From assembly GCF_050920415.1 (NCBI RefSeq), contig NZ_CP169309.1: a stretch of DNA of 64,000 nucleotides. One strand, written 5' to 3'. Below the pieces are notes generated by a model. The model did not search any database. It was not told the origin of the DNA and saw only the letters and a list, made by a program, of their open reading frames with translations. Every line of letters starts with the position of its first letter. Position 1 is the first letter of the stretch. Below are positions 1 through 36,258 of this stretch, one piece after another. Source of the DNA: Escherichia coli (GTDB taxonomy: Bacteria > Pseudomonadota > Gammaproteobacteria > Enterobacterales > Enterobacteriaceae). Both the position numbers and the translations under genes were made by a program.

Positions 1-91
1 CCATCATATGATGGCCAACCATGTCGAAACCGACAGCCCTTCGCCATTCCTGTAGAGGGAAGCGGCGAGGGCTATTTCTTATTACAAGTAT
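1..91 (-). ncRNA. sdhX: 3' UTR downstream of sucD; probable SdhX (RybD) sRNA region, its terminator palindrome (ggccatcatatgatggcc) cut by the window edge
   Basis: Position directly 3' of the sucD stop on the minus strand; palindrome at 1-18; sRNA identity is from recalled knowledge of the sucD 3' UTR, not sequence-verified. Confidence 0.35.
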
Positions 92-961
92 TTATTTCAG
101 AACAGTTTTCAGAGCTTCACCGATGTCAGCCAGGCTGCGAACGGTTTTCACGCCTGCGGCTTCCAGAGCAGCGAATTTCTCATCCGCAGTCCCTTTCCCA
201 CCGGCAATGATGGCACCCGCGTGGCCCATACGTTTGCCTTTCGGCGCAGTTACACCAGCGATGTAACCTACAACTGGCTTGGTAACGTGCTCTTTGATGT
301 ACGCAGCCGCTTCTTCTTCAGCGCTACCGCCGATCTCACCGATCATCACGATCGCTTCGGTCTGCGGATCTTTTTCGAACATTTCGAGGATGTCGATAAA
401 GTTAGAACCAGGGATCGGGTCGCCGCCGATACCGACACAGGTCGACTGACCGAAACCGTAATCCGTGGTCTGTTTAACCGCTTCATAGGTCAGTGTACCG
501 GAACGGGAAACGATACCCACTTTACCCGGTTTGTGAATGTGACCAGGCTGGATGCCGATTTTACATTCACCCGGAGTGATAACGCCCGGGCAGTTCGGGC
601 CGATCATGCGTACGCCAGCTTCGTCCAGTTTCACTTTCACCGTCAGCATATCCAGCGTCGGGATGCCTTCAGTGATGGTGATAATCAGTTTGATACCTGC
701 GTCGATGGCTTCCAGAATGGAGTCTTTGCAGAACGGAGCCGGTACGTAGATAACAGAAGCGGTAGCGCCAGTGGCAGCAACGGCTTCACGCACGGTGTTG
801 AACACCGGCAGACCAAGGTGGGTAGTACCGCCTTTACCTGGGGTTACGCCGCCAACCATTTTAGTGCCGTATGCAATGGCCTGTTCAGAGTGGAAAGTCC
901 CCTGGCTACCAGTAAAGCCCTGGCAGATAACCTTGGTGTTTTTATCAATTAAAATGGACAT
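92..961 (-). CDS. sucD: Succinyl-CoA synthetase alpha subunit
   Basis: 289 aa ORF, CoA-binding and ligase motifs, 1-bp overlap with sucC. Confidence 0.97.
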
Positions 962-2127
962 TATTTCCCCTCCACTGCGGCAACAACCTGCTGAGCTGCA
1001 TCCGTCAGACCTTTTGCTGCAATAATATTCAGGCCGCTGTCAGCCAGTTTCTTCGCGCCGAGTTCGGCGTTGTTACCTTCCAGACGTACCACGACCGGTA
1101 CGTTAACACCCACTTCCGCTACCGCGCCGATGATACCGTCAGCGATCAGGTCGCAACGAACGATACCGCCGAAGATGTTAACCAGAACGGCTTTCACTTT
1201 GTCGTCAGAGAGGATGATTTTGAATGCTTCGGTTACACGTTCTTTGGTTGCGCCACCGCCAACGTCCAGGAAGTTAGCCGGTTCGCCGCCGTGCAGTTTA
1301 ACGATGTCCATGGTGCCCATCGCCAGACCTGCGCCGTTAACCATACAACCGATGTTACCGTCCAGCGCAACGTAGTTCAGTTCCCACTGTGCAGCCTGTG
1401 CTTCACGTGGATCTTCCTGCGACTGGTCGCGCATTTCGCGCAGATCAGGCTGGCGGAACAGTGCGTTGCCGTCAGCGCCCAGTTTGCCGTCGAGGCAAAT
1501 CAGATCGCCCTGTTTGGTGATGACCAGCGGGTTGATTTCGATCAACGCCAGGTCGCGCTCCAGGAAAATGGTCGCCAGGCCCATGAAGATTTTGGTGAAC
1601 TGCTGAACCAGTTTACCTTCCAGACCCAGTTTGAACGCCAGCTCGCGTCCCTGATACGGCATCGGGCCAGTCAGCGGATCAAGCGCAACTTTGTGGATCA
1701 GGTGCGGAGTTTCTTCCGCCACTTTTTCGATTTCCACGCCGCCTTCGGTGGAGGCCATAAAGACCACGCGACGGGAACTACGGTCTACAACGGCACCAAG
1801 ATACAGCTCTTTAGCGATATCGGTCGCTGCTTCAACCAGAATCTGGTTAACCGGTTGACCATTGGCATCTGTTTGATACGTTACCAGACGCTTGCCCAGC
1901 CAGTTTTCTGCAAAAGCACGGATGTCTTCTTTGCTGTTTACAACTTTCACACCGCCCGCTTTACCGCGGCCACCAGCGTGAACCTGACATTTCACTACCC
2001 ACGGACCGGCACCGATTTTTGAAGCGGCTTCTTCTGCTTCGCGCGGAGTAGTACAGGCATAACCCACCGGTGCTGGTAAGCCATAGCGGGCAAACAGTTG
2101 TTTTGCCTGATATTCATGTAAGTTCAT
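961..2127 (-). CDS. sucC: Succinyl-CoA synthetase beta subunit
   Basis: 388 aa ORF starting [12 protein letters not shown] (ATP-grasp). Confidence 0.97.
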
Positions 2128-2209
2128 GTGTTCTGTCCATCCTTCAGTAATCGTTATCTTTTAAACCGTAGACCGAATATTTCGTATCGCTTCCGGGTAT
2201 TGTCGGTCA

Positions 2210-2340
2210 CCCGTAGGCCTGATAAGACGCGCAAGCGTCGCATCAGGCATCGCGTGTCGGATGCGGCGCGAGCGCCTTATCCGACCTACATCGGTGCTTC
2301 CCGTAGGCCTGATAAGACGCGTTAAGCGTCGCATCAGGCT
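2210..2340. repeat. REP/BIME cluster (three REP units in alternating orientation)
   Basis: Repeated gtaggcctgataagacgcg...gcgtcgcatcaggc palindromic units between sucC and sucB. Confidence 0.8.
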
Positions 2341-2402
2341 TCAATTGCCGGAGAAAGCGATAATGCCTCATCCGGTCTACAGTGCAGGTGAAACTTAAAC
2401 TA

Positions 2403-3620
2403 CTACACGTCCAGCAGCAGACGCGTCGGATCTTCCAGCAACTCTTTGATCGTTACCAGGAAGCCCACGGACTCGCGACCATCGATCAGACGGTGATCGT
2501 AGGACAGCGCCAGGTACATCATCGGCAGGATCTCAACCTGACCATTCACTGCCATCGGACGATCTTTGATAGCGTGCATACCCAGAATTGCGCTCTGCGG
2601 CGGGTTGATGATAGGCGTAGACATCAGGGAACCGAACACACCACCGTTGGTGATGGTAAAGTTACCACCGGTCAGATCTTCAACCGTCAGCTTGCCGTCA
2701 CGGCCTTTAACTGCCAGCTCTTTAATTTTCTTCTCGATGTCTGCCATGCCGAGGGTATCGACATCACGCAGAACCGGCGTCACCAGGCCGCGCGGCGTAG
2801 ATACCGCCATGCTGACGTCGAAATAGTTGTGGTAAACCACATCATCGCCGTCGATAGAAGCATTCACTTCCGGATAACGTTTCAGGGCTTCAACCACTGC
2901 TTTAACGTAGAAGGACATAAAGCCCAGACGGATGCCGTGACGTTTTTCAAACGCTTCACCATACTGCTTACGCAGATCCATAATCGGCTTCATGTTGACT
3001 TCGTTGAACGTGGTCAGCATGGCAGTAGAGTTTTTCGCTTCCAGCAGACGCTCTGCCACACGCTTACGCAGGCGAGTCATCGGAACACGTTTTTCGCTAC
3101 GTGCAGCCAGAGCCGGTTGCGCCGCCGTAGTAGCTGCTGCTGGTGCAGACTCTTTCGCCGGGGCTTTCGCCAGATGTTTTTCCACATCTTCACGGGTCAG
3201 ACGACCACCTACACCGGTGCCTTTAATGGCGCTGGCATCAAGATTGTGTTCAGCCAAAAGGCGACGGATCGCCGGGCTTAAGGCATCGTTGTTTTGCTCT
3301 TCCAGAGACGCCTGTTGGCGTTGTGCCGGAGTTGACGCTTTCTCTTCAGATTTGGCGCTGGTTTCTTTACCGGCGCTGTTGCCTTCACGCAGGCGACCAA
3401 GGATCTGACGAGACGTTACGGTTGTACCTTCATCTTCCAGAACCGCATCCAGAATGCCGTCTGCTGATGCCGGTACTTCCAGTACCACTTTGTCAGTTTC
3501 GATTTCTACCAGCACTTCATCACGTACGACTGCGTCGCCGGGTTTTTTATGCCAGGTTGCGACGGTGGCATCGGCTACGGATTCAGGCAGGTCAGGGACC
3601 AGAATATCTACGCTACTCAT
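2403..3620 (-). CDS. sucB: 2-oxoglutarate dehydrogenase E2 (dihydrolipoyllysine succinyltransferase)
   Basis: 405 aa ORF, lipoyl domain ([10 protein letters not shown]) plus catalytic domain. Confidence 0.97.
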
Positions 3621-3634
3621 TGTGTATCCTTTAT

Positions 3635-6436
3635 TTATTCGACGTTCAGCGCGTCATTAACCAGATCTTGTTGCTGTTTCTGGTGAACGGACATATACCC
3701 TACCGCCGGAGAGGCGGAGGCCGGGCGGCCTGCATAACGCAGAGAAGCCCCAAACGGAATCACTTCACGGAAATGATGCTGGCTACAGTACCATGCGCCC
3801 TGGTTGAGCGGCTCTTCCTGGCACCAGACAAAATCCTTGACGTGAGCAAACTGCTGCAACACTTCCTGCATCGCTTTATGCGGGAACGGGTAGAGTTGCT
3901 CGATACGCACGATGGCGACATCGTGTTGATTGTTCTTACGACGTTGTTCCAGCAGGTCGTAATAAACCTTACCAGAACACATCACTACGCGCTTCACGCC
4001 CTTCGGATCAAGCTCGTCGATTTCACCAATGGCAGGCAGGAAGGTGCCGTTCGCCAGTTCTTCGAGGCTGGAAACCGCCAGCGGATGACGCAGCAGGGAT
4101 TTCGGCGACATCACCACCAGCGGACGACGCATCCCGCGCAGCGCCTGACGACGCAGCATATGGTAAACCTGTGCCGGGGTAGACGGTACGCACACCTGCA
4201 TGTTTTGTTCAGCACAAAGTTGCAGATAACGTTCCAGACGCGCGGAGGAGTGCTCCGGCCCTTGCCCTTCATACCCGTGCGGCAGCAGCATTACCAGACC
4301 ACACATCCGGCCCCATTTCTGTTCGCCAGAGGAGATGAACTGGTCGATAACCACCTGCGCACCGTTAGCGAAGTCACCAAACTGCGCTTCCCAGATGGTC
4401 AGCGTGCGCGGCTCTGCGGTGGCATAACCGTATTCAAACGCCAGCACTGCTTCTTCAGACAGTACGGAGTCCCAGACGCGGAACGCGCCCTGACCATTAT
4501 GGATATGTTGCAGCGGCGTGTAAGTGGAACCGTTGGACTGATTGTGGATCACCGCATGACGATGGAAGAAGGTACCGCGACCGGAGTCTTCACCCGACAG
4601 GCGGACCGGAATGCCTTCATCAACCAGCGTGGCGTAAGCGAGGTTTTCCGCGCCGCCCCAGTCGAACAGTTTCTCACCGGCAGCCATTGCCTGGCGATCG
4701 CCATAAATCTTGGCAACGCGAGACTGCATTTCAACCGCTTCCGGCACCGTACTGATACGTTTAGCCAGTTCCTGCAGGCGCTTCATCTCAACTTTGTTCG
4801 GGTACTCTTCGTCCCATTCGTGGTTGAGGTACGGCGACCAGGTGAAAGAGTGCATGTTCATCGGACGCCACTCTGCTACCACGCAATCGCCAGCATCCAG
4901 CGCATCACGGTACAGGTTAACCATCTCGGTGGCATCTTCCAGCGTCGCGACTTTTTCCTGCTCCAGCTTGTCAGCGTAGATTTTGCGCGGCGTCGGATGT
5001 TTTTTGATTTTCTGATACATCAGCGGCTGAGTTGCACTCGGCTCGTCGGCTTCGTTGTGGCCGTGACGGCGGTAGCACACCAGGTCGATGAAGACATCAC
5101 GTTTAAAGGTGTTACGGAAATCGAGCGCCAGACGGGTCACAAAGGCAACGGCTTCCGGATCATCCGCATTAACGTGGAAAATCGGTGCCTGTACCATCTT
5201 GCCGATATCAGTACAGTACGGCGTAGAACGGGCATCCAGCGGGTTAGAGGTAGTGAAACCGACCTGGTTGTTGATAACGATACGTACCGTACCGCCAACT
5301 TCATAACCACGCGCTTTCGACATGTTCAGGGTTTCCTGAACCACGCCCTGCCCGGTCACTGCGGCGTCACCGTGGATGGTGATTGGCAGCACTTTGTTGC
5401 TGCTCGGCTCATCGAGTCTGTCCAGACGGGCGCGAACAGAACCGATAACTACCGGGCTTACAATCTCAAGGTGAGACGGGTTAAACGCCAGCGCCAGGTG
5501 AACCAGGCCGCCGTCGGTCTGGAAGTCAGACGAGAAGCCCATGTGGTATTTCACGTCGCCCGTGCCGAGGTGTTCTTTATGTTTACCGGCAAACTCGTCG
5601 AACAAGTCTTGCGGTTTTTTACCCAGCACGTTAACCAGCACGTTCAGACGACCACGGTGCGCCATCCCGAGAACCACTTCACGGGTGCCGCTATTGCCAG
5701 CATGGCGGATAATCTCTTTAAGCATCGGGATTAACGCGTCACCGCCTTCCAGCGAGAAGCGTTTTGCGCCAGGGAATTTTGCGCCGAGGTAACGTTCAAG
5801 GCCTTCAGCGGCGGTCAGTTCGCTTAAGAAGCGTTTTTTCTCTTCGCTATTGAAAGTCGCGCGACCAGACTCGATACGCTGTTGGATCCAGCGTTTTTCT
5901 TCGGTGCTGGTAATGTGCATGTACTCGGCACCAATCGGGCCGCAGTAGGTTTGCTTGAGGGCTTCCAGCAGCTCGCCGAGTTTCATGGTTTCTTTGCCGC
6001 TGGCAAATGAACCGACGTTGAAGGTCTCCTGGAAGTCTGCTTCGGTCAGATCGTGGAAAGACGGATCCAGATCGGCCACTTTATCTTGCTGCCACAGTCC
6101 CAGCGGATCGAGATTCGCATGCTGGTGACCGCGGAAGCGGTATGCGTTAATGAGCTGCAGGACTTTAACCTGCTTCACATTGGTGTCAGGGTCGGAGATC
6201 GTTGAAGAGTAACGTGAAGCGTCTTTCGCCAGGCGGCGGAAATATTCACGCGTTTGAGAGTGGAATTGATCCGGTTTGACTCCCGTACCAGGTAACTGCT
6301 GGAACGTCGAACGCCAGTTAGCGTCAACCGAGTCAGGATCGGTTAAGAAGTCTTCATAGAGCTGTTCTATCCAGCTCTGGTTTGCGCCAGAGAGGTAAGA
6401 AGAGTCCAACCAGGCTTTCAAAGCGCTGTTCTGCAT
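3635..6436 (-). CDS. sucA: 2-oxoglutarate dehydrogenase E1 component
   Basis: 933 aa ORF starting [31 protein letters not shown]. Confidence 0.97.
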
Positions 6437-6609: not shown

Positions 6610-6690
6610 TTGTAGGCCGGATAACGCATTCACGCCGCATCCGGCACTGGTTGCCTGATGCGACGCTTGTGCGTCTTATCAGGCCTGGGT
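6610..6690. repeat. REP elements in sdhB-sucA intergenic region
   Basis: tgtaggccggataa...gcatccggca and gcctgatgcgacgc...gcgtcttatcaggcc palindromic units. Confidence 0.75.
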
Positions 6691-12918: not shown

Positions 12919-13431
12919 ATGGACACCGTGAATATTTATCGACTCTCTTTTGTATCCTGCCTGGTCATGGCGATGCCTTCCGCCATGGCGGTTGAATTCA
13001 ACCTGAATGTCCTCGACAAATCGATGCGTGAGCGCATTGATATTTCATTATTAAAGGAAAAAGGTGTCATTGCTCCCGGTGAATATTTTGTCAGCATTGC
13101 AGTAAATAATAACCAAATCAGTAATGGGCAAAAAATTAACTGGCAAAAAAAGGGTGACAATACCATTCCGTGCATCAATGATTTATTGGTCGATAAATTT
13201 GGCTTAAAACCTGAAGTCCGTCAGTCGTTACCCCTGATTAATCAGTGCGTCGATTTTAGCACCCGACCAGAAATGCTCTTCAATTTTGATCAGGCCAGTC
13301 AGCAACTGAATATCACCATCCCACAGGCCTGGCTGGCGTGGCACTCAGATAACTGGACTCCACCCTCCACATGGAAAGAAGGTGTCCCCGGTGTCCTGAT
13401 GGATTACAACTTGTTTGCCAGCAGCTACCGC
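12919..13431 (+). pseudogene. ybgQ: Fimbrial usher, N-terminal fragment (gene split by IS21-like insertion)
   Basis: Usher N-terminal domain reads up to ...DYNLFASSYR, then runs into the IS left end and a stop. Confidence 0.85.
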
Positions 13432-13532
13432 TGTCAGCGCCAATGATATAAGACAGTAATTCACCATTTGGATTGTCCGCTCCACCCAACATGTTGTTTC
13501 CTTAAGGTTCCTACACCACAAAGGGAACACTC

Positions 13533-14703
13533 ATGCTGAGCAGAGAGGACTTTTACATGATAAAGCAAATGCGCCAGCAAGGTGCGTATATTGTTGATAT
13601 TGCCACTCAGGTTGGTTGCTCTGAGCGGACTGTCAGACGGTACCTGAAATACCCGGAACCTCCGGCCAGAAAAACACGCCACAAAATGGCCAAACTCAAG
13701 CCGTTCATGGACTATATCGACATGCGTCTGGCTGAGAATGTCTGGAACGGCGAGGTCATCCTGGCGGAAATCAAAGCGATGGGTTATACCGGTGGCCGTT
13801 CCATGTTGCGTTACTACATCCAGCCCAAACGTAAGATGCGGCCATCGAAGAAAACGGTTCGCTTCGAAACTCAGCCCGGTTACCAGCTACAGCATGACTG
13901 GGGAGAAGTTGAGGCTGAGGTTGCCGGGCAACGATGCAGGGTTAACTTCGCGGTTAATACGCTGGGGTTCTCACGTCGCTTCCATGTCTTCGCGGCACCA
14001 AAGCAGGATGCTGAACATACCTATGAGTCACTGGTCCGCGCCTTTCGCTACTTCGGCGGCAGCGTGAAAACCGTGCTGGTCGATAACCAGAAAGCCGCAG
14101 TGCTGAAAAATAACAACGGGAAGGTGGTGTTCAACTCCGGGTTCCTGCTGCTGGCCGATCACTATGGCTTCCTGCCACGGGCCTGCCGTCCACGAAGGGC
14201 CAGAACCAAAGGTAAGGTGGAACGGATGGTGAAATACCTCAAGGAAAACTTCTTCGTCCGGTACCGCCGGTTCGACAGCTTCGCCCATGTTAATCAGCTA
14301 CTGGAGCAGTGGATGGCTGACGTTGCCGACAGGCGGGAACTTCGCCAGTTCAGGCAGACACCGGAACAGCGCTTCACGCAGGAACAGGTGCATCTGCAGG
14401 CGCTGCCAGGTACGGACTTCGATACCAGCTACTTCGATATCCGTCATGTCTCCTGGGATGGCTATATCGAGGTTGGCGGGAACCGTTACAGCGTGCCGGA
14501 AAGCCTGTGTGGCCAGCCGGTATCAATACGGATCTCGCTGGATGATGAACTGCGATTTACAGTAATGAGCAACAGGTAGCATCGCACCGTCTCTGTTCGG
14601 CTGTATACGGCTGGCAGACCGTGCCGGAGCATCACGCCCCACTCTGGCAGCAGGTCAGTCAGGTGGAACACAGGCCGTTGAGTGCCTATGAGGAGCTGTT
14701 GTG

Positions 14704-14704
<1 letters not shown>
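13533..14704 (+). pseudogene. istA: IS21-family transposase IstA, apparent -1 frameshift near 14550-14580
   Basis: 348 aa ORF (HTH + DDE) stops at 14579; the last ~40 codons continue in another frame and end with TGA overlapping the istB ATG. Confidence 0.7.
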
Positions 14705-15499
<795 letters not shown>

Positions 15500-15556
15500 T
15501 GACCAATAGCGGACATTAAAAATGGCGAAAAACGGCCAATAATCTTGGCGTTGACA

Positions 15557-17508
15557 ACCGCCCACAGGATGGCAGCAGCAGCACTAATCTTAACGCCTAC
15601 GGAACAGCCGGAATTAACGCGGGGGCATGGCGCTTACGCAGTGACTATCAGTTGAATCAAAATGATGGCAATGATAACCATGAACAGTCAGGCGAAATAT
15701 CACGTACCTATCTTTTTCGCCCGCTACCGCAATTAGGTTCAAAATTAACCCTCGGCGAAACGGATTTTAGTTCCAATATTTTCGACGGTTTTTCTTATAC
15801 CGGCGCGGCACTGGCGAGTGACGACCGGATGTTACCGTGGGAACTGCGCGGCTACGCTCCACAAATTAGCGGTATTGCACAAACCAATGCCACGGTGACG
15901 ATCAGTCAATCAGGCCGCGTCATCTACCAGAAAAAAGTCCCGCCAGGTCCGTTTATCATTGATGACCTTAATCAGTCCGTCCAGGGTACGTTGGATGTCA
16001 AAGTGACGGAAGAAGATGGTCGGGTGAACAATTTCCAGGTTTCGGCAGCATCGACGCCTTTCCTTACGCGCCAGGGGCAGGTTCGCTATAAACTTGCTGC
16101 CGGTCAGCCGCGAACATCTATGTCTCATCAAACTGAAAATGAAACCTTTTTTAGCAATGAAGTTTCCTGGGGGATGCTGTCAAATACCTCGCTGTACGGC
16201 GGCCTGCTGATTTCGGGTGACGACTACCATTCTGCCGCAATGGGTATCGGGCAAAATATGCTCTGGCTTGGCGCGCTATCGTTTGATGTCACCTGGGCCA
16301 GTAGTCAGTTTGATACTCAGCAGGACGAGCGGGGCTTAAGTTACCGCTTTAATTACAGCAAACAAGTGGATGCCACTAACAGCACGATTTCGCTCGCCGC
16401 TTATCGCTTCTCAGATCGTCATTTTCACAGCTACGCCAACTATCTGGATCACAAATACAACGACAACGATGCGCAGGACGAAAAACAGACGATCAGCTTA
16501 TCCGTGGGGCAACCGATTACCCCACTGAACCTCAATCTGTACGCCAACCTGCTGCATCAAACCTGGTGGAATGCAGACGCCTCCACGACCGCCAACATCA
16601 CGGCGGGTTTTAATGTTGATATTGGTAACTGGAGAGATATCTCTATTTCGACGTCATTCAATACAACCCATTACGAAGATAAAGATCGCGACAACCAGAT
16701 TTACCTGTCGATTTCGCTTCCCTTCGGTAACGGTGGTCGGGTCGGTTATGACATGCAAAACAGTAGCCACAGCACCACACACCGCATGTCGTGGAACGAT
16801 ACGCTGGATGAACGAAATAGCTGGGGGATGTCTGCTGGACTACAATCCGACCGTCCGGACAATGGAGCCCAGGTGAGCGGTAACTATCAGCACCTGAGTT
16901 CAGCGGGTGAGTGGGATCTTTCTGGTACTTATGCTGCCAATGACTACAGTTCTGTTAGCAGCAGCTGGAGTGGTTCTTTCACGGCGACGCAATATGGTGC
17001 AGCCTTCCATCGCCGCAGCTCCACCAATGAACCACGCCTGATGGTCAGCACCGATGGCGTGGCAGATATTCCGGTTCAGGGCAATCTCGACTACACCAAC
17101 CATTTTGGCATTGCAGTGGTACCGCTGGTTTCCAGTTATCAACCTTCCACCGTGGCCGTGAACATGAACGACTTACCCGACGGCGTGACGGTGACAGAAA
17201 ACGTCATCAAAGAAACGTGGATTGAAGGCGCAATAGGTTACAAATCACTGGCATCCCGTTCCGGTAAAGACATTAACGTCATCATTCGCAACGCCAGCGG
17301 TCAGTTCCCTCCCCTCGGTGCGGATATCCGTCAGGATGGCAGCAGCATTAGCGTGGGGATGGTTGGCGAGGAAGGACACGCCTGGTTAAGCGGAGTCGCT
17401 GAAAATCAAAAGTTTACCGTGGTCTGGGGTGATAGTCAGCGTTGCTCGATCCATCTTCCTGAACATATGGAAGACACCGCAAATCGCCTGATTTTACCTT
17501 GTCATTAA
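15557..17508 (+). pseudogene. ybgQ: Fimbrial usher, C-terminal fragment
   Basis: Frame continues RPQDGSSSTNLNAYGTAGINAGAWRLRSDYQ... (usher barrel and C-terminal domains); in frame with the N-fragment once the IS and one TSD copy are removed. Confidence 0.85.
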
Positions 17509-28347: not shown

Positions 28348-28893
28348 TCAGCTAGTTTCTGTCCATAGCTGCCCTTTCCATTCAAACGTGAAATCAATAA
28401 GTTCATCAGGGACATCGCAAACAATGTGAAGACGGATTTCTTCTCTGCCGTGACTCTTTTCACTAATTGCGTAACTGTCATGCTCTGGATTATTTAATTC
28501 TTTCAGCGGAAATTTTTCCTCGAAGGCTTTATTTAGCCGCCCCTGGTTTCCTTTTACAGCGAATAAATAATCACCTCCCTGTTTTTGTATCTTCTCTGCA
28601 ATATCTTTCTGGCAACCCATCGCATCAGTTGTGATGATTTTTCCTTTAATATCCAGCATGTTAAGAAGTTCCGGGGTAGCTGTAATCTCAATACCATTTT
28701 CAAAATCACCATATTGCTTCAAAAAATCGAGATGTGTTTCCCCAAAATCCTCTATATCTTCCCAACCTTCCGCACCCGAAATAACGGCGCAAATAGTCAA
28801 CAGTAGAATATCCGATAATTTATGCTCCACTTTCCAGGCTTGTCTGTAATCGGGGATAATAGAAATATGTTCCATCAATTTTTTAAGTTCCAT
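28348..28893 (-). pseudogene. ybfD: H-repeat-associated (ISAs1-family) transposase remnant, internally deleted and C-terminally truncated
   Basis: N-terminus [18 protein letters not shown]... typical of H-rpt proteins; only 181 aa where full length is about 378 aa; central region appears missing (recalled comparison). Confidence 0.7.
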
Positions 28894-29062
28894 TTTGTTC
28901 TCCTTAATTATGTAAGGAGTATTTGATCATGTATAAGCAATAAAAAACAGCTTCAGGTAATGAGGAATATCTCAATTTTTAAACATAAAATGCGAATTAT
29001 TTAGTACAAAAAAGCAGCGTTAAGTGAGTAGGCCACCGGAACCTCCCCGACAGCCTCTCGCA

Positions 29063-29096
29063 GAACCGTACGTGAAACTCTCGCTTCATACGGCTC
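29063..29096 (-). ncRNA. Group II intron ribozyme domain V
   Basis: Minus-strand GAGCCGTATGAAGCGAGAGTTTCACGTACGGTTC, 34 nt, with AGC triad and CGAGAG-type loop. Confidence 0.85.
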
Positions 29097-29099
29097 CCG

Positions 29100-30353
29100 T
29101 CAGGCAAACGCGCTTCCTGGTCCTGCTTTCCAGTGGGCAAACAACTCCGGCTTCTCTTTTGACAGCCTTTCCATTAGCTGACACGCCTTCGTCTTTCTAT
29201 ACCGCAGGGTTTTATATTTCTTTCTCGCCCACGCAATCAGCGTCAGATTAATATATCTGCATACTTTCTTCATCGCTGATTTGTGGTATCTCGCGTAATA
29301 ATTCAGCCACCCCGATATTATCGGATTCAGCCACTTCGCAATATCTTCGAGACTCATCTCCACCCTGCGTCTGATCCACAGTTTCCTGAGTTTTCCAATC
29401 ATGCCTTTCTGCGCACGGTTACTCGCCGCCGGGCTGAAACTCGTAAAGAGGTTTCCCCGCCGGTGGTTACGTGCTCTTCGCGCTCTGAACGTATACCCCA
29501 GAAAATCAAACTGCACTGTTTCATGGTTCGCCTGTCGTTCGCTGTCTTTGCAGTAAACTACTTTCGTTTTCTCCGGATGTAATTCCAGTCCACATTCCTG
29601 AAAACGTTTTGCCAGCTTATTCAGTAATTCCTCTGCCTGTTGTTTACTGCCACAATGAATTAATCCATCATCTGCATAACGGCACCAGGGAATTTCCGGA
29701 TAATGTAACGTCAGCCATTTATCAAACACATAGTGCAGAAATAAATTCGCCAGTACCGGGCTGATGACTCCACCCTGTGGCGTACCTTTATTTCTTTCCT
29801 TCAGTGTTCCATCCGGCATCTGCACCGGCGCTGTCAGCCACCGGCGAATAGACAGTCTTACCCATTTATCCGCACAATGTTTATCTACTGCCCTGAGTAA
29901 TAAATCGTGGGAGATATTATCGAATAACCCTTTAATATCAAACTCAAGACACCAGTCGTATTGCCAGCAACGTTTTCTGGTGACTGCTATTGCATCCAGC
30001 GCTGATTTTCCATGCCGGTATCCGTATGAATCATTCAGGAAATAACGCTCCACTAATGGTTCAAACGTTACCAGCACCGTCATCTGCGCTATTCGATCGC
30101 TTACTGTCGGTATTCCTAAAAGTCTTTTGCTGCCATCCTTCTTCGGAATTTCCACCGCACGCACTGGCGGCGGCATCCAGCTTCCCGACGATAACCTGTT
30201 CCAGATTTTGTACAGATTTCCTTTCAGATCCCGCTCAAAATCTTTCAGCGTCTGGTTATCCACTCCGGCAGCTCCGGCATTCGCCTTTATCCGCCGGTAC
30301 GCTTCCACCACATGCAATTTACTGACCTGAAACGGTTTTGTCTGTTCACACAC
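29100..30353 (-). CDS. Group II intron-encoded reverse transcriptase/maturase (no endonuclease domain)
   Basis: 417 aa; RT motifs LLGIPTVSDRIAQ and YADDGLI; C-terminal maturase X-like region; no HNH. Confidence 0.9.
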   Translation of the reverse strand: MCEQTKPFQVSKLHVVEAYRRIKANAGAAGVDNQTLKDFERDLKGNLYKIWNRLSSGSWMPPPVRAVEIPKKDGSKRLLGIPTVSDRIAQMTVLVTFEPLVERYFLNDSYGYRHGKSALDAIAVTRKRCWQYDWCLEFDIKGLFDNISHDLLLRAVDKHCADKWVRLSIRRWLTAPVQMPDGTLKERNKGTPQGGVISPVLANLFLHYVFDKWLTLHYPEIPWCRYADDGLIHCGSKQQAEELLNKLAKRFQECGLELHPEKTKVVYCKDSERQANHETVQFDFLGYTFRARRARNHRRGNLFTSFSPAASNRAQKGMIGKLRKLWIRRRVEMSLEDIAKWLNPIISGWLNYYARYHKSAMKKVCRYINLTLIAWARKKYKTLRYRKTKACQLMERLSKEKPELFAHWKAGPGSAFA

Positions 30354-30481
30354 AGCCTCCTCCTGCCTACAGTTGGGCTGTGATGCAGACTAGACTGGCC
30401 CCCTGAATCTCCAGACAACCAGTATCACTTAAATAAGTGATAGTCTTAATACTAGTTTTTAGACTAGTCATTGGAGAACAG

Positions 30482-30847
30482 ATGATTGATGTCTTAGGGC
30501 CGGAGAAACGCAGACGGCGTACCACACAGGAAAAGATCGCAATTGTTCAGCAGAGCTTTGAACCGGGGATGACGGTCTCCCTCGTTGCCCGGCAACATGG
30601 TGTAGCAGCCAGCCAGTTATTTCTCTGGCGTAAGCAATACCAGGAAGGAAGTCTTACTGCTGTCGCCGCCGGAGAACAGGTTGTTCCTGCCTCTGAACTT
30701 GCTGCCGCCATGAAGCAGATTAAAGAACTCCAGCGCCTGCTCGGCAAGAAAACGATGGAAAATGAACTCCTCAAAGAAGCCGTTGAATATGGACGGGCAA
30801 AAAAGTGGATAGCGCACGCGCCCTTATTGCCCGGGGATGGGGAGTAA
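30482..30847 (+). CDS. insC: IS2 OrfA (InsC)
   Basis: [30 protein letters not shown]... 121 aa. Confidence 0.93.
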
Positions 30848-31710
30848 GCTTAGTCAGCCGTTGTCTCCGGGTGTCGCGTGCGCAGTTGCACGTCATTCTC
30901 AGACGAACCGATGACTGGATGGATGGCCGCCGCAGTCGTCACACTGATGATACGGATGTGCTTCTCCGTATACACCATGTTATCGGAGAGCTGCCCACGT
31001 ATGGTTATCGTCGGGTATGGGCGCTGCTTCGCAGACAGGCAGAACTTGATGGTATGCCTGCAATCAATGCCAAACGTGTTTACCGGATCATGCGCCAGAA
31101 TGCGCTGTTGCTTGAGCGAAAACCTGCTGTACCGCCATCGAAACGGGCACATACAGGCAGAGTGGCCGTGAAAGAAAGCAATCAGCGATGGTGCTCTGAC
31201 GGGTTCGAGTTCTGCTGTGATAACGGAGAGAGACTGCGTGTCACGTTCGCGCTGGACTGCTGTGATCGTGAGGCACTGCACTGGGCGGTGACTACTGGCG
31301 GCTTCAACAGTGAAACAGTACAGGACGTCATGCTGGGAGCGGTGGAACGCCGCTTCGGCAACGATCTTCCGTCGTCTCCAGTGGAGTGGCTGACGGATAA
31401 TGGTTCATGCTACCGGGCTAATGAAACACGCCAGTTCGCCCGGATGTTGGGACTTGAACCGAAGAACACGGCGGTGCGGAGTCCGGAGAGTAACGGAATA
31501 GCAGAGAGCTTCGTGAAAACGATAAAGCGTGACTACATCAGTATCATGCCCAAACCAGACGGGTTAACGGCAGCAAAGAACCTTGCAGAGGCGTTCGAGC
31601 ATTATAACGAATGGCATCCGCATAGTGCGCTGGGTTATCGCTCGCCACGGGAATATCTGCGGCAGCGGGCTTGTAATGGGTTAAGTGATAACAGATGTCT
31701 GGAAATATAG
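30805..31710 (+). CDS. insD: IS2 OrfB transposase (InsD, DDE)
   Basis: 301 aa ORF overlapping insC in the -1 frame. Confidence 0.93.
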
Positions 31711-32342
31711 GGGCAAATCCACAGACTGCCCGACGCTGTCCCTTCGCTCCACGTTCATTACAAACGCTTCCTCACTACTACGAACAGCTCTGCCCCGGTT
31801 TCGCACATCGATACTCTCATACTCATAATTTCGGTTATTTGTATTTCTCTCTTGAAATTGCGACGACCGGTTCCCGTAGTTCCTGCAAAGAGCCTGATAC
31901 AGCGTCATGCCTGCTATACACCGGACACCATTCACGCAGCATTCGGAATTCACCCGTAAATTAATCCCGGCGGTATCACGAAACCTCCGGTTTTGATGTC
32001 ACTTAGGACTAACGACGTTTCAACACAGGTTCGGGTTTACTCATCTCACTGTATCTCACATAGGATCAGATCTCGTCTGATCGTTCCCCCTGCGCTCACT
32101 ACCATGGCTCTTTACCACAGCAGCCGGGGTTGTTTGGGACCGACTTCCGACAGCAGATCCCGGTGGGCCTGCCACCATCTCTTCACAAGCTTATGCTTAT
32201 TACATGCAAAACGTCCCGTTTTGCATCTTTGTGCCTACGGCACACGATGATCTTTCCCTGTACCACCTCCTCAGGAAGTGGTTTAAGGTTAATAACAAAA
32301 ATACCAATCATTTTAATAAAATATGACGAGTATTTATTTTCA

Positions 32343-32629: not shown

Positions 32630-35600
32630 TTATTTATGCAATCGTATGTGGTTTTTAGGTGTGTTTACTCTAAGATTATCAATATCATAGACTTCTCCCC
32701 CATATTGGATTTCGTCAATATGATGAATTTCAAATGTACCTCGCCCCCCAACTCTTTGTCTTGATATAGTATAAGGTGCGCGTCCACGCTTTATCAACGT
32801 TTGGTTAGCTTTATTAAATTGGCTCAATAGTTCTGGACATTCACCTACAGCAGTCCAGAAAGCTGCCCTGAATTCATCAAAATTGTTAAATGACTTACTC
32901 CGAAGTTTATTTGCGACCTGTTGTGGAATTGGCACTCCTAAGCTTTTCCCCGCCTGCGACAGCCATCTTCCTGTACCTGCTAACACCTCCCCCTTACCTG
33001 TTACTGTTCCCGCTTCATCCCTTGCAGTTTTCAGATACACATATATTGGTGTTAATTCCGCACCGTCAGGAAAGACAAGTATCCAGTCATTAAAATTTCG
33101 CTCCTCCGGCATTGGAGAAGGCGGCGTGGTGATATCTGTTTTTTCATCGGGTATCGGATTAACATAAATATCAGGTAGATCAACTGGTTCGACAGGAGTT
33201 CCGGTGTGTATGGGCTGCTCTGAACCTTCTGGCTTTGCAGGCGTCCAAAATATTTTTGGTCCCGAATCAGACACAGGTGAAAATTCATAACGGGAAAATT
33301 CCTTATTCCACTCCATCAATGCTACCCGAACACCTTCAAGTTCCGAACCTGCGGGTGTGTGGTATCCGTATGTTCTCAATTCACCAGCAGTATTCCGCTG
33401 AAAGAGAAAGCGCGCCCGCGTAGCTGCCGTCTCTCCAGATTGCGCTTTACGACGTAGCTCATTTTCGAGCCACTGTTCATCCCGTCCAGGAACTTTATCA
33501 CTACCTTCACCGGCAGGTATTGGATATAGTGCTGATACTAGAACACCAAGGGCTGGCACCGTTTTTGATACACTTAAAAAACCTTCTCCACCCCATGCCC
33601 CTAATGTTCCCCATACGCGAGTTAAAACTCCCGCAGACTGTTCCGCCGCTAGTGGAACCGCAACACCCGCTGACGCAACTGTCATTTCCCCCGTCAGTGA
33701 GTTCGCTCCTGAAGTTTTTTTTGCTGACTGCGCAAGTTGCTCCACTTCATCGTCATGATAGTGTGTACCATAGCCGCAACAGTCATCCTCCACTGGCTGG
33801 GCAAATAGAGCCATATCACCAAAATGTTTCGATGGCTCCATGGTCGTACCAGCATCAGTGCAGCCTTTCTCCTTCAGACAAGATTTTGCGTATACAGGAA
33901 TTACCAGTTCATCTGAATCGTCCTTGTCTTCTTCTCCACCTTCTGATTCATCCTCATCACTAGGCTCTCCGTCATTCCCGCCGCCAGCATTCCCTCTGTC
34001 ATACTGCTCGTCAGCCAGAGCGTCCATAACTGCCGGTTGTAGTGTATTTATCGGCGTCCCCGGACTGCCCCCGCCATTCAGATTTATTTTCGGTCCGACA
34101 ATATCCACACCACCAGAATGAACGACCACAAACGAGCCCCCCACCTTCAGGCTTATCCGGCTGCTGCTCTCCAGCACGATATCCCCGTCCACCTTGATCC
34201 CCAGCGCGCCACTCACCTTCTCCGCCAGGTCGCCCTTCACCTCCAGACTGTGCGTTCCCTCCACCAGACTGATATGGTTCCCCGTCGTCTTATGCTCCTG
34301 CTTCCCTTCCACCGTCACTTTACGGTCGTTTCTGACATACAGGCCGTCATCGTGACTCACGCTCACCGTCCGGTCATTCGTCACCTTCAGCGTCTGGTCA
34401 TTACGTACCGTTATGCGCCGGTCGTTCGCCACCGTGATACTCTGGTCGTGACCCCCTTCTTTTCTGGTGCCGACCTCAACCGTCTGCCCCTTCACCACCC
34501 TTATCTTCTGGTCGTTACCGATGGTCTCCGTATGGTCATGCTTCACGTCCGTCCGCCGGTCGTTAAGCACCTCCGTGTCCATGTTCTTCTGCGCGTGGAT
34601 ATACACCTGCTCACTGTCCGTCGCATCCTCGAAACGCAGTTCATTAAAGCCGCTTCCTTTATAGGTCTTCGAGCGGATGGTCATCTGCGTCCGCGTGCCC
34701 GGTAAATCCCCCGGTGAACGGTTGTCCTCATGGTATGTCCGCCCCGTCACAATGGGCTGGTCCGGGTCGCCGTTCAGAAAGTCCACTATCACTTCCTGAC
34801 CCACACGCGGTATCGCCAGATTGCCGAACCCCGGTCCCGCCCATGCCTGCGACACCCGTATCCAGCATGAACTCTCCTCCGTCATCCCGTGATAACGGTC
34901 CCAGTGAAACTTCACCCGTACCCGGCCATGTTCGTCGCAGAATATCTCCTCGCCCTTCGGCCCGGTCACAATGGCACTCTGCGGGCCGTCCACCTTCGGC
35001 TTCGGCAGCGGCGCGTGACGCCACGTCCTGTCTGCCGGTATCACCTCAAACTGATTGCTCAGTGTCGTCCCTTCACCGTGACTCCCGTGCAGCGCCTGCG
35101 GCTGTTCTCCCCGCAGTGTGCTTCCCACAACCTGCCATTCCCGGTTCAGCGTCCCTGACGGATGGCCCGTCAGCCGGAACCGCGTTCCCGGCCACAGTCG
35201 CGCCGTGTTACACACCCCGCTCGCCGTCTCCGCCCCGTTCCGCCACCCTTCCGTCTGGTAACGCGCAAAATCCTGGCCATGCTGCTCATCCTTGAAACGC
35301 CCCGGATAATCAAATATCTCGTACTGCGTTCCCTGCCCGTTCAGGCTCTCCCCGTCATGGCTGTAGTACCCCGGCCACCCCGGCGTTTTGAACGTATAAT
35401 CCTGCGTCTCCACCGACGCCACGCTTATCTGCGCACGGTAACGGAAGTCGCTGATGTACTCTGTCGTGCCTCCGGTCGTGGTATTCGGGTTAAACGCCAG
35501 CGCCCCCATTCCCGTCAGCCCCGCCACGTCATCACACACCGCCAGCTTCTGTTCCGGCCCGTCCTGACTGCAGCGTTCATAAAAGAAGATACCTTCCTCC

Positions 35601-36085
35601 GCCCACAGCCGGGTCAGGAATGTCAGGTCGCTCTCCCCGTACTGCACGCAGAACTCCCGCGCCGGGTGCGCCTCATAGAACAGCGGCATCCACGCCGTCA
35701 CCCCGTTCTCTCTCAGAAGCTGTGCTGATATCGTCCCTATGTCCTGCTGCTGGAAGATACGGAAGTTCTGCCGTAACCCTGCCCGCCACAGCGGCGGGCT
35801 GATGCTCAGGGAATAACGCATCTGCCAGTCGTTGTTCTCACCGAGCTGCACCTCCGTCACGATACCGCTGACGTAACGCTGCGGGATATCACCCTGCCAG
35901 ACCGTCAGCACCGCGCTCTTCTCCAGAAAATCCTCCGCCGTCAGGTCAGACAGCCCGCTGGCGATATCCACATCCAGGATGAACGGCGTGCAGTGGTGCT
36001 GGTACAGACGGAAGCTCACCACCGCCGTCGCCATCTCCACGATACCGGCCACCGACAGCGTGAAACGTAATCCTTCTGAGGACAT
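32630..36085 (-). CDS. vgrG: Specialized VgrG spike protein fused to a C-terminal S-type-pyocin-like region and colicin E9-type HNH DNase
   Basis: N-terminal VgrG core (MSSEGLRFTL..., gp5-like VTVANDRRITVRNDQTLKVTNDRTVSVSHDD repeats); acidic linker; C-terminus GGRGTFEIHHIDEIQYGGEVYDIDNLRVNTPKNHIRLHK. Start taken at internal MSSEGLRF; the track ORF extends to 36118. Confidence 0.9.
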   Translation of the reverse strand: MSSEGLRFTLSVAGIVEMATAVVSFRLYQHHCTPFILDVDIASGLSDLTAEDFLEKSAVLTVWQGDIPQRYVSGIVTEVQLGENNDWQMRYSLSISPPLWRAGLRQNFRIFQQQDIGTISAQLLRENGVTAWMPLFYEAHPAREFCVQYGESDLTFLTRLWAEEGIFFYERCSQDGPEQKLAVCDDVAGLTGMGALAFNPNTTTGGTTEYISDFRYRAQISVASVETQDYTFKTPGWPGYYSHDGESLNGQGTQYEIFDYPGRFKDEQHGQDFARYQTEGWRNGAETASGVCNTARLWPGTRFRLTGHPSGTLNREWQVVGSTLRGEQPQALHGSHGEGTTLSNQFEVIPADRTWRHAPLPKPKVDGPQSAIVTGPKGEEIFCDEHGRVRVKFHWDRYHGMTEESSCWIRVSQAWAGPGFGNLAIPRVGQEVIVDFLNGDPDQPIVTGRTYHEDNRSPGDLPGTRTQMTIRSKTYKGSGFNELRFEDATDSEQVYIHAQKNMDTEVLNDRRTDVKHDHTETIGNDQKIRVVKGQTVEVGTRKEGGHDQSITVANDRRITVRNDQTLKVTNDRTVSVSHDDGLYVRNDRKVTVEGKQEHKTTGNHISLVEGTHSLEVKGDLAEKVSGALGIKVDGDIVLESSSRISLKVGGSFVVVHSGGVDIVGPKINLNGGGSPGTPINTLQPAVMDALADEQYDRGNAGGGNDGEPSDEDESEGGEEDKDDSDELVIPVYAKSCLKEKGCTDAGTTMEPSKHFGDMALFAQPVEDDCCGYGTHYHDDEVEQLAQSAKKTSGANSLTGEMTVASAGVAVPLAAEQSAGVLTRVWGTLGAWGGEGFLSVSKTVPALGVLVSALYPIPAGEGSDKVPGRDEQWLENELRRKAQSGETAATRARFLFQRNTAGELRTYGYHTPAGSELEGVRVALMEWNKEFSRYEFSPVSDSGPKIFWTPAKPEGSEQPIHTGTPVEPVDLPDIYVNPIPDEKTDITTPPSPMPEERNFNDWILVFPDGAELTPIYVYLKTARDEAGTVTGKGEVLAGTGRWLSQAGKSLGVPIPQQVANKLRSKSFNNFDEFRAAFWTAVGECPELLSQFNKANQTLIKRGRAPYTISRQRVGGRGTFEIHHIDEIQYGGEVYDIDNLRVNTPKNHIRLHK

Positions 36086-36258
36086 ATAAACCCCATAGCT
36101 ACCGCACTCATGGTGCAAACCATACGGGCTTATAAGAAAGGCTTAAGTGAGATATCTGCCAGATAGCAACTATTAGGAAAATATTTATATATATTTCATG
36201 AATATATATTTCGGTTGGTATAACGGTGTCTAAATATTCCTCTGAACATCTTCCTGAT

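Follow-up and report, generated by a model that had tools for sequence, protein, structure and literature searches.

A near-identical allele of the small RNA gene sdhX, cut 10 nt before its 3' end, in the sucD 3' untranslated region of an Escherichia coli strain

The stretch of DNA analysed here (the window) comprises 64,000 nt of E. coli contig NZ_CP169309.1 and begins on the 3' side of sucD, the last gene of the sdhCDAB-sucABCD operon. The only long open reading frame ending near the window edge was that of sucD on the minus strand (Table 1), which was annotated at matching coordinates as WP_000025458.1 in NZ_CP169399.1, and exactly 91 nt were found between its stop codon and the edge. Upstream of sucD on the minus strand, ORFs were present at 961..2127, 2403..3620 and 3635..6436, and the operon order sucDCBA-sdhBADC was confirmed by the ORF list together with the NZ_CP169399.1 annotation (sucC, odhB/sucB, sucA and sdhBADC). 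Of the 5,426 complete E. coli genomes to which window positions 1-1200 were compared by megablast, 5,425 gave a match, and one genome, NZ_CP169399.1 (strain MFDS1022581), was 100% identical over this region. REP/BIME-type repeats were also present in the operon at 2216-2377 and 6615-6685, in the spacers between sucB and sucC and between sdhB and sucA (Rfam naRNA4, RF02564, 76.5 and 73 bits), along with weaker copies.

The reverse complement of window positions 1-91 was aligned to the K-12 sdhX ncRNA gene (b4764, NC_000913.3 765050..765150), which is 101 nt long, starts at the first base past the sucD stop codon and ends 2 nt short of the convergent gene mngR. The alignment to nt 1-91 of SdhX was gapless and 88 of the 91 positions were identical. 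SdhX numbering is counted from the first base 3' of the sucD stop codon, such that nt n corresponds to window position 92-n. The part of SdhX that lies beyond the window edge amounts to 10 nt (nt 92-101), namely CC followed by UUUUUU and AU. The earlier note had counted 91 nt between the sucD stop and the window edge and had suggested that they may hold most of the body of SdhX, described there as a regulator derived from a 3' UTR; it did not state the strand. The count was exact, the region was found to contain 91 of the 101 nt on the minus strand, the alignment to annotated sdhX succeeded, and the description of SdhX agrees with the literature (PMC6393394, PMC9438474). We therefore read window positions 1-91 on the minus strand as the sucD 3' UTR and as the sdhX gene, which encodes an Hfq-dependent sRNA (SdhX, formerly RybD) and is cut 10 nt before its 3' end, with a probability of about 0.95.

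Table 1. Features of the sucD-sdhX region at the start of the window
Feature	Window position	Strand	Basis or remark
sucD (succinyl-CoA synthetase alpha subunit)	92..961	-	ORF list, 289 aa; stop codon TAA 92-94
SdhX (RybD) sRNA, nt 1-91 of 101	1..91	-	gapless alignment to K-12 sdhX b4764
A/U-rich 5' leader, SdhX nt 1-18, AUACUUGUAAUAAGAAAU	74..91	-	alignment; carries the nt 4 and nt 5 polymorphisms
Stem-loop 1, SdhX nt 19-57, Escherichia-specific body	35..73	-	MFE and consensus structure
katG-pairing stretch GCUUCCCUCUACAG, SdhX nt 29-42, including C34 (window 58)	50..63	-	duplex prediction; PMC6393394
Small hairpin GUCG-GUUU-CGAC, SdhX nt 58-69	23..34	-	MFE and consensus structure
Conserved seed UUCGACAUGGU, SdhX nt 64-74	18..28	-	same sequence as the seed in PMC6393394
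Rho-independent terminator hairpin, 16 of 18 nt, SdhX nt 76-91	1..16	-	repeat search, terminator scan, covariation

Three differences from K-12 were found in the window, at nt 4 (U to C, window 88), nt 5 (C to U, window 87) and nt 83 (G to A, window 9), and a fourth, at nt 100 (G to A), lies beyond the edge and was read from NZ_CP169399.1. The first two lie in the 5' leader, which is variable, and the third lies in the loop of the terminator; the fourth is outside the window. Among the matches listed, all four pyrimidine combinations (UC, CU, CC and UU) occurred at nt 4-5 across Escherichia, and nt 83 was G, A or U; these three sites look neutral. The published functional elements (the seed, G62, the UUU site and the katG-pairing stretch with C34) all lie within the window and were unchanged. 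Locus and strand, directly after the sucD stop, were the same as in K-12, and no differences from K-12 were present in stem-loop 1, its katG-pairing loop or the stem of the terminator.

The complete 101-nt RNA, obtained by extending the window allele with the sequence of NZ_CP169399.1 (L001), gave a minimum free energy of -41.3 kcal/mol compared to -24.0 +/- 3.1 kcal/mol for shuffled sequences (z = -5.7). In the predicted fold, the loop of the small hairpin carries G62 (window 30) and the UUU RNase E site (window 27-29), which is the putative position of cleavage in the window sequence, and the seed ends in a single-stranded stretch between the small hairpin and the terminator hairpin (nt 76-93). 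The same structure was obtained from a consensus fold of six Escherichia-type sequences, and in E. albertii pair 28-47 of stem-loop 1 was kept through a compensatory change from C-G to U-A.

The terminator hairpin is the feature at which the window opens. Window positions 1-16 read ccatcatatgatggcc, and a repeat search found arms of 7 nt each (1-7 and 8-14) that were 100% complementary with no spacer. In NZ_CP169399.1 the plus strand carries gg immediately before window position 1 and aaaaaa before that, which completes the palindrome to ggccatcatatgatggcc; the last two stem bases and the U-tract were thus seen in a genome other than the source. On the minus strand of that genome the sequence reads GGCCAUCAUAUGAUGGCC-UUUUUU, with a 7-bp stem, a 4-nt loop and a tract of six U. 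The proposal that the window starts inside the sucD 3' UTR terminator was therefore upheld by extension upstream, 16 of the 18 hairpin nucleotides being present and the palindrome cut at position 1. A terminator scan of the window by itself did not detect the hairpin because the window edge cuts it, and the same scan on NZ_CP169399.1 reported it on the minus strand only (L001 1516-1499, 7 pairs, loop of 4). The palindrome by itself was unremarkable, as five perfect palindromes of at least 14 nt were found in the window compared to 3.3 +/- 1.8 in shuffled sequences; its significance stems from position and homology. Across 29 distinct hairpins collected with a cross-species search pattern that left the terminator stem unconstrained, the stem covaried at position 5 (A-U/G-C), position 6 (U-A/C-G) and position 7 (C-G/U-A), and at each of the seven stem positions 27-29 of 28-29 hairpins were paired.

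The terminator may vary elsewhere in the species. In NZ_CP065613.1 (E. coli FDAARGOS_944) the sdhX match ends at nt 73, at the end of the seed, and the terminator appears to have been replaced or disrupted; seven records match sdhX at only 80-90% identity. These are possible natural variants of the SdhX terminator.

Beyond the 3' end of sdhX the gene content changes. Homology to K-12 ends approximately 5 nt past sdhX, and a convergent CDS of the RtcB family follows in NZ_CP169399.1. In K-12 the convergent neighbour is mngR-mngAB; in contrast, the lineage of the window carries the RtcB-family gene and a methylaspartate-pathway island, and behind RtcB the sucD-cydA interval, directly before window position 1 (L003, NZ_CP169399.1 3440000-3456200), contains genes for LysR, cobO, class I fumarase, a symporter, methylaspartate ammonia-lyase and glutamate mutase (glmS/L/E). 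The RtcB-type junction was present in 156 of 5426 E. coli genomes, others had the island without RtcB, and the majority had mngR. The sdhX terminator is thus the exact and fixed edge of a region of variable gene content in E. coli. The RtcB/methylaspartate junction, which lies beyond the window edge, is the sole mildly unusual aspect of the context.

The convergent arrangement raises the question of transcription from the other side. Besides ending SdhX, the hairpin might serve as a bidirectional terminator for the convergent gene (RtcB family here, mngR in K-12): it is a perfect palindrome and so would form on both transcripts, the RtcB CDS ends at L001 1494 with a TAA that overlaps the complement of SdhX nt 98-100 in NZ_CP169399.1, and K-12 mngR ends 2 nt past sdhX. 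We consider this additional role unlikely, since on the plus strand the hairpin is followed by AACCATGT, with no U-tract, and the terminator scan match was confined to the minus strand. Because the RtcB stop overlaps the complement of the SdhX U-tract and there is no U-tract in the rtcB direction, transcription could also read through from rtcB. The resulting RNA would be antisense to the SdhX seed, with AUGUCGAAAC mimicking the ackA site, and could act as a lineage-specific sponge or through transcriptional interference. What speaks for this proposal is the geometry of the locus, and we regard it as highly improbable. If true, the regulation of the TCA cycle and acetate would be tied to an RNA-repair gene and to the methylaspartate-pathway island.

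The plus strand of this region also contains an ORF at 21..266 (81 aa, ATG at 21), which was entered in the mechanical ORF list and begins with ATGTCG, as would a small gene antisense to sucD. However, ATGTCGAA is complementary to the SdhX seed, a sequence that has evolved for pairing with start regions of the AUG-UCG type, and the frame lies antisense to the coding sequence of sucD, which is highly conserved. No gene was annotated there in any of the four annotated records inspected (4/4), and no promoter-like site was found in window positions 1-500. This ORF was rejected as an artefact of the seed's complementarity to AUG-UCG, and a real gene at this position is next to inconceivable.

Several mobile or variable elements were noted further into the window. 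The usher gene of the ybg fimbrial cluster (12919-17508) is apparently split by an IS21-like element, annotated in NZ_CP169399.1 as istA/istB of ISEc62 at 13533-15498, and a truncated transposase of the ISAs1 family (H-repeat) is present at 28348-28893. A group II intron was found on the minus strand at 29023-32176 (Rfam domain V/VI at 29023-29098 and D1-D4 at 32059-32176) with an RT/maturase ORF at 29100-30353 (RVT_1 and GIIM). It is interrupted by an ORF on the opposite strand (30805-31710; rve, rve_3 and HTH_21) whose predicted product combines an HTH domain with an integrase catalytic core, as is typical for transposases of IS elements. The intron of NZ_CP169399.1 is approximately 1.3 kb shorter, differing by the IS insertion at approximately 30.8 kb, and the insertion is therefore specific to the strain of the window. 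At 32630-36118 on the minus strand, an intact ORF of 1162 aa combines VgrG (Phage_GPD, Gp5), S-type pyocin and colicin/pyocin DNase domains and resembles a nuclease effector of the T6SS 'evolved VgrG' type. The equivalent region in NZ_CP169399.1 is annotated as a truncated tssI pseudogene and, apart from it, an S-type pyocin protein, with a bacteriocin immunity gene next in order.

The conservation of SdhX was examined within and beyond the species. The 101-nt query matched 5425 of 5426 complete E. coli genomes, nearly all at 95% identity or higher over nt 6-99 or 6-101. A cross-species scan of contigs with the pattern TTTCGACATGGTT-N14-28-TTTTTT, in which the seed and the T-run are invariant by construction, returned at least 120 loci, and a locus was counted as SdhX only when the SucD C-terminus was found within 330 nt upstream. 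At least 55 of the loci lie behind sucD, nearly all in organisms named as Enterobacteriaceae genera or close relatives; those listed include Escherichia, Citrobacter, Salmonella, Klebsiella, Raoultella, Enterobacter, Kluyvera, Lelliottia, Pluralibacter, Kosakonia, Mangrovibacter, Siccibacter and Atlantibacter. In these loci the seed starts 25-80 nt past the sucD stop codon, and the 13-nt seed block is similarly placed while the remaining UTR diverges freely. Among the matches listed, the Escherichia-type body was confined to E. coli, E. albertii, Escherichia sp. and a single MAG that carries the label Citrobacter. The other 65 loci had no SucD C-terminus upstream and were not counted; they are mostly chance matches in unrelated taxa or phyla, and at least two of them (L022 and L109) are enterobacterial loci too short to check. 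At the level of sequence, the scan reproduces the published picture of a conserved module of seed plus terminator behind a freely evolving 5' part.

Many of the homologues outside Escherichia (within L009-L122), including those of Enterobacter, Lelliottia, Pluralibacter, Kluyvera, Raoultella and others, start right past the stop codon with the motif CCUCUCUGCUCC, which is similar to an anti-Shine-Dalgarno sequence and forms the 5' arm of a stem-loop. Its resemblance to the katG-pairing CUUCCCUCU loop suggests a second seed directed at Shine-Dalgarno sequences, which may be more widespread than the one specific to E. coli.

Annotation of this gene is sparse. Rfam 15 holds no SdhX family, and window positions 1-3000 and the K-12 sdhX locus gave chance hits only (tmRNA, E = 1.1; isrD, E = 0.45, on the terminator alone). 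This negative result is uninformative because annotated K-12 sdhX itself gets no hit. Among the 101-nt matches listed, no sdhX annotation by RefSeq/PGAP was found, and an overlapping RtcB CDS was annotated in two; the curated K-12 record was the only RefSeq annotation with sdhX among those inspected. The gene probably goes unannotated in most genomes because there is no Rfam model.

Base pairing of the window allele with known targets was recomputed against K-12 mRNAs. According to the published work, the seed lies immediately 5' of the terminator and ackA is the conserved target; in E. coli, G62 pairs with C-13 of fdoG, as proven with the compensatory changes G62C and C-13G, and the Shine-Dalgarno sequence of katG is paired by the variable region through C34, as proven by compensatory mutagenesis of C34G (PMC6393394). 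The repression is specific to ackA and does not extend to pta, as De Mets et al. 2019 are summarised in PMC9438474. Duplexes of the full-length 101-nt RNA with 90-nt targets (RNAduplex) were long, spurious and no better than with shuffled targets, and for this reason predictions were restricted to regions. Within the seed, the block UUCGACAUGG (nt 64-73) is complementary to K-12 ackA from -2 to +8, the AUG included, and the duplex of nt 60-74 with ackA reached -16.4 kcal/mol, with none of 500 shuffled targets as good. For fdoG, nt 62-71 with G62 opposite C-13 gave -15.9 kcal/mol, and 4% of shuffles were as good. For katG, nt 29-42 with the SD region (-20 to -7) gave 14 bp including one G-U and -28.2 kcal/mol, with 0 of 500 shuffles as good. 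Both E. coli-type features, G62 for fdoG and the CUUCCCUCU loop for katG, are thus present in the window allele, and the three predicted duplexes match the published, validated pairings.

The same region could be taken for a passive 3' UTR of the suc operon with an intrinsic terminator, having no trans-acting RNA function in the window strain. The terminator is real, and RefSeq/PGAP annotates no RNA under the matches listed, although the absent Rfam model explains the missing annotation. Against such passivity, the seed, G62 and the katG stretch are base for base as in K-12, where the pairings were validated by compensatory mutations, and the 13-nt seed block was kept behind sucD in at least 55 genomes, even though identity of the seed was the criterion of the search. 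A purely passive UTR is therefore very hard to credit, and the reading of window positions 1-91 as sdhX is retained.

Comparison with other systems places the window allele with the E. coli form of SdhX. In Salmonella Typhimurium, SdhX (SdhX1 of 87 nt and SdhX2 of 38 nt; Miyakoshi et al. 2019, PMC6393394) occupies the same position behind sucD and shares the seed, the logic of terminator and RNase E processing, and the target ackA. In contrast to E. coli and the window, it carries U in place of G62 and does not regulate fdoG, it is without the katG-pairing region, and its 5' body is shorter and unrelated (PMC6393394; L088). The cross-species scan also picked up a locus from Salmonella enterica subsp. 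arizonae (L088). CpxQ, SroC, NarS and MalH likewise have a seed directly upstream of the intrinsic terminator of the parental transcript, are released by RNase E, depend on Hfq and have no promoter of their own (PMC9438474). Their sequences, parental operons and targets are unrelated to those of SdhX, however, and the likeness is one of kind and not of homology.

SdhX of K-12 and Salmonella has been shown to bind Hfq and to repress its targets in vivo (PMC6393394, PMC9438474). It is produced by RNase E processing of the approximately 10-kb sdhCDAB-sucABCD mRNA, has neither a TSS nor a promoter of its own (PMC6393394), and occurs in forms of approximately 101 nt and 38 nt (PMC9438474). The UUU motif is the cleavage site that gives the functional 38-nt SdhX2, and a UUU to CCC mutation of this processing site was made on SdhX1 (PMC6393394). 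No sigma-70-like promoter was found on either strand in window positions 1-500, which is consistent with biogenesis of SdhX by processing. The position, identity, structure, conservation and terminator of the window allele and its complementarity to three K-12 targets were observed here; RNase E processing, Hfq binding and target repression in the window strain we infer from the literature on near-identical alleles.

On this basis, SdhX in the window strain would be transcribed as the tail of the sdhCDAB-sucABCD mRNA, with no promoter of its own, and the transcript would end at the intrinsic terminator, the hairpin of which is interrupted by the window edge at position 1. As in the literature, RNase E would release the forms of approximately 101 and 38 nt, the second cut, in the GG-UUU loop, freeing the seed from the small hairpin, and Hfq would be bound through the U-tract of the terminator. 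The single-stranded seed would then pair with the start-codon region of ackA mRNA and acetate kinase would be repressed, by which expression of the TCA-cycle operon would be coupled to the metabolism of acetate and acetyl-phosphate. As in other E. coli, fdoG would be added to the targets through G62, and the Shine-Dalgarno sequence of katG would be paired by the loop of stem-loop 1. Translation initiation of all three mRNAs would be blocked.

The finding is an already known sRNA gene in the form of a near-identical allele, and its discovery value is small. Automated scans will keep flagging sdhX as unannotated conserved sequence. SdhX is a textbook sRNA derived from a 3' UTR that links the TCA-cycle operon to acetate metabolism.
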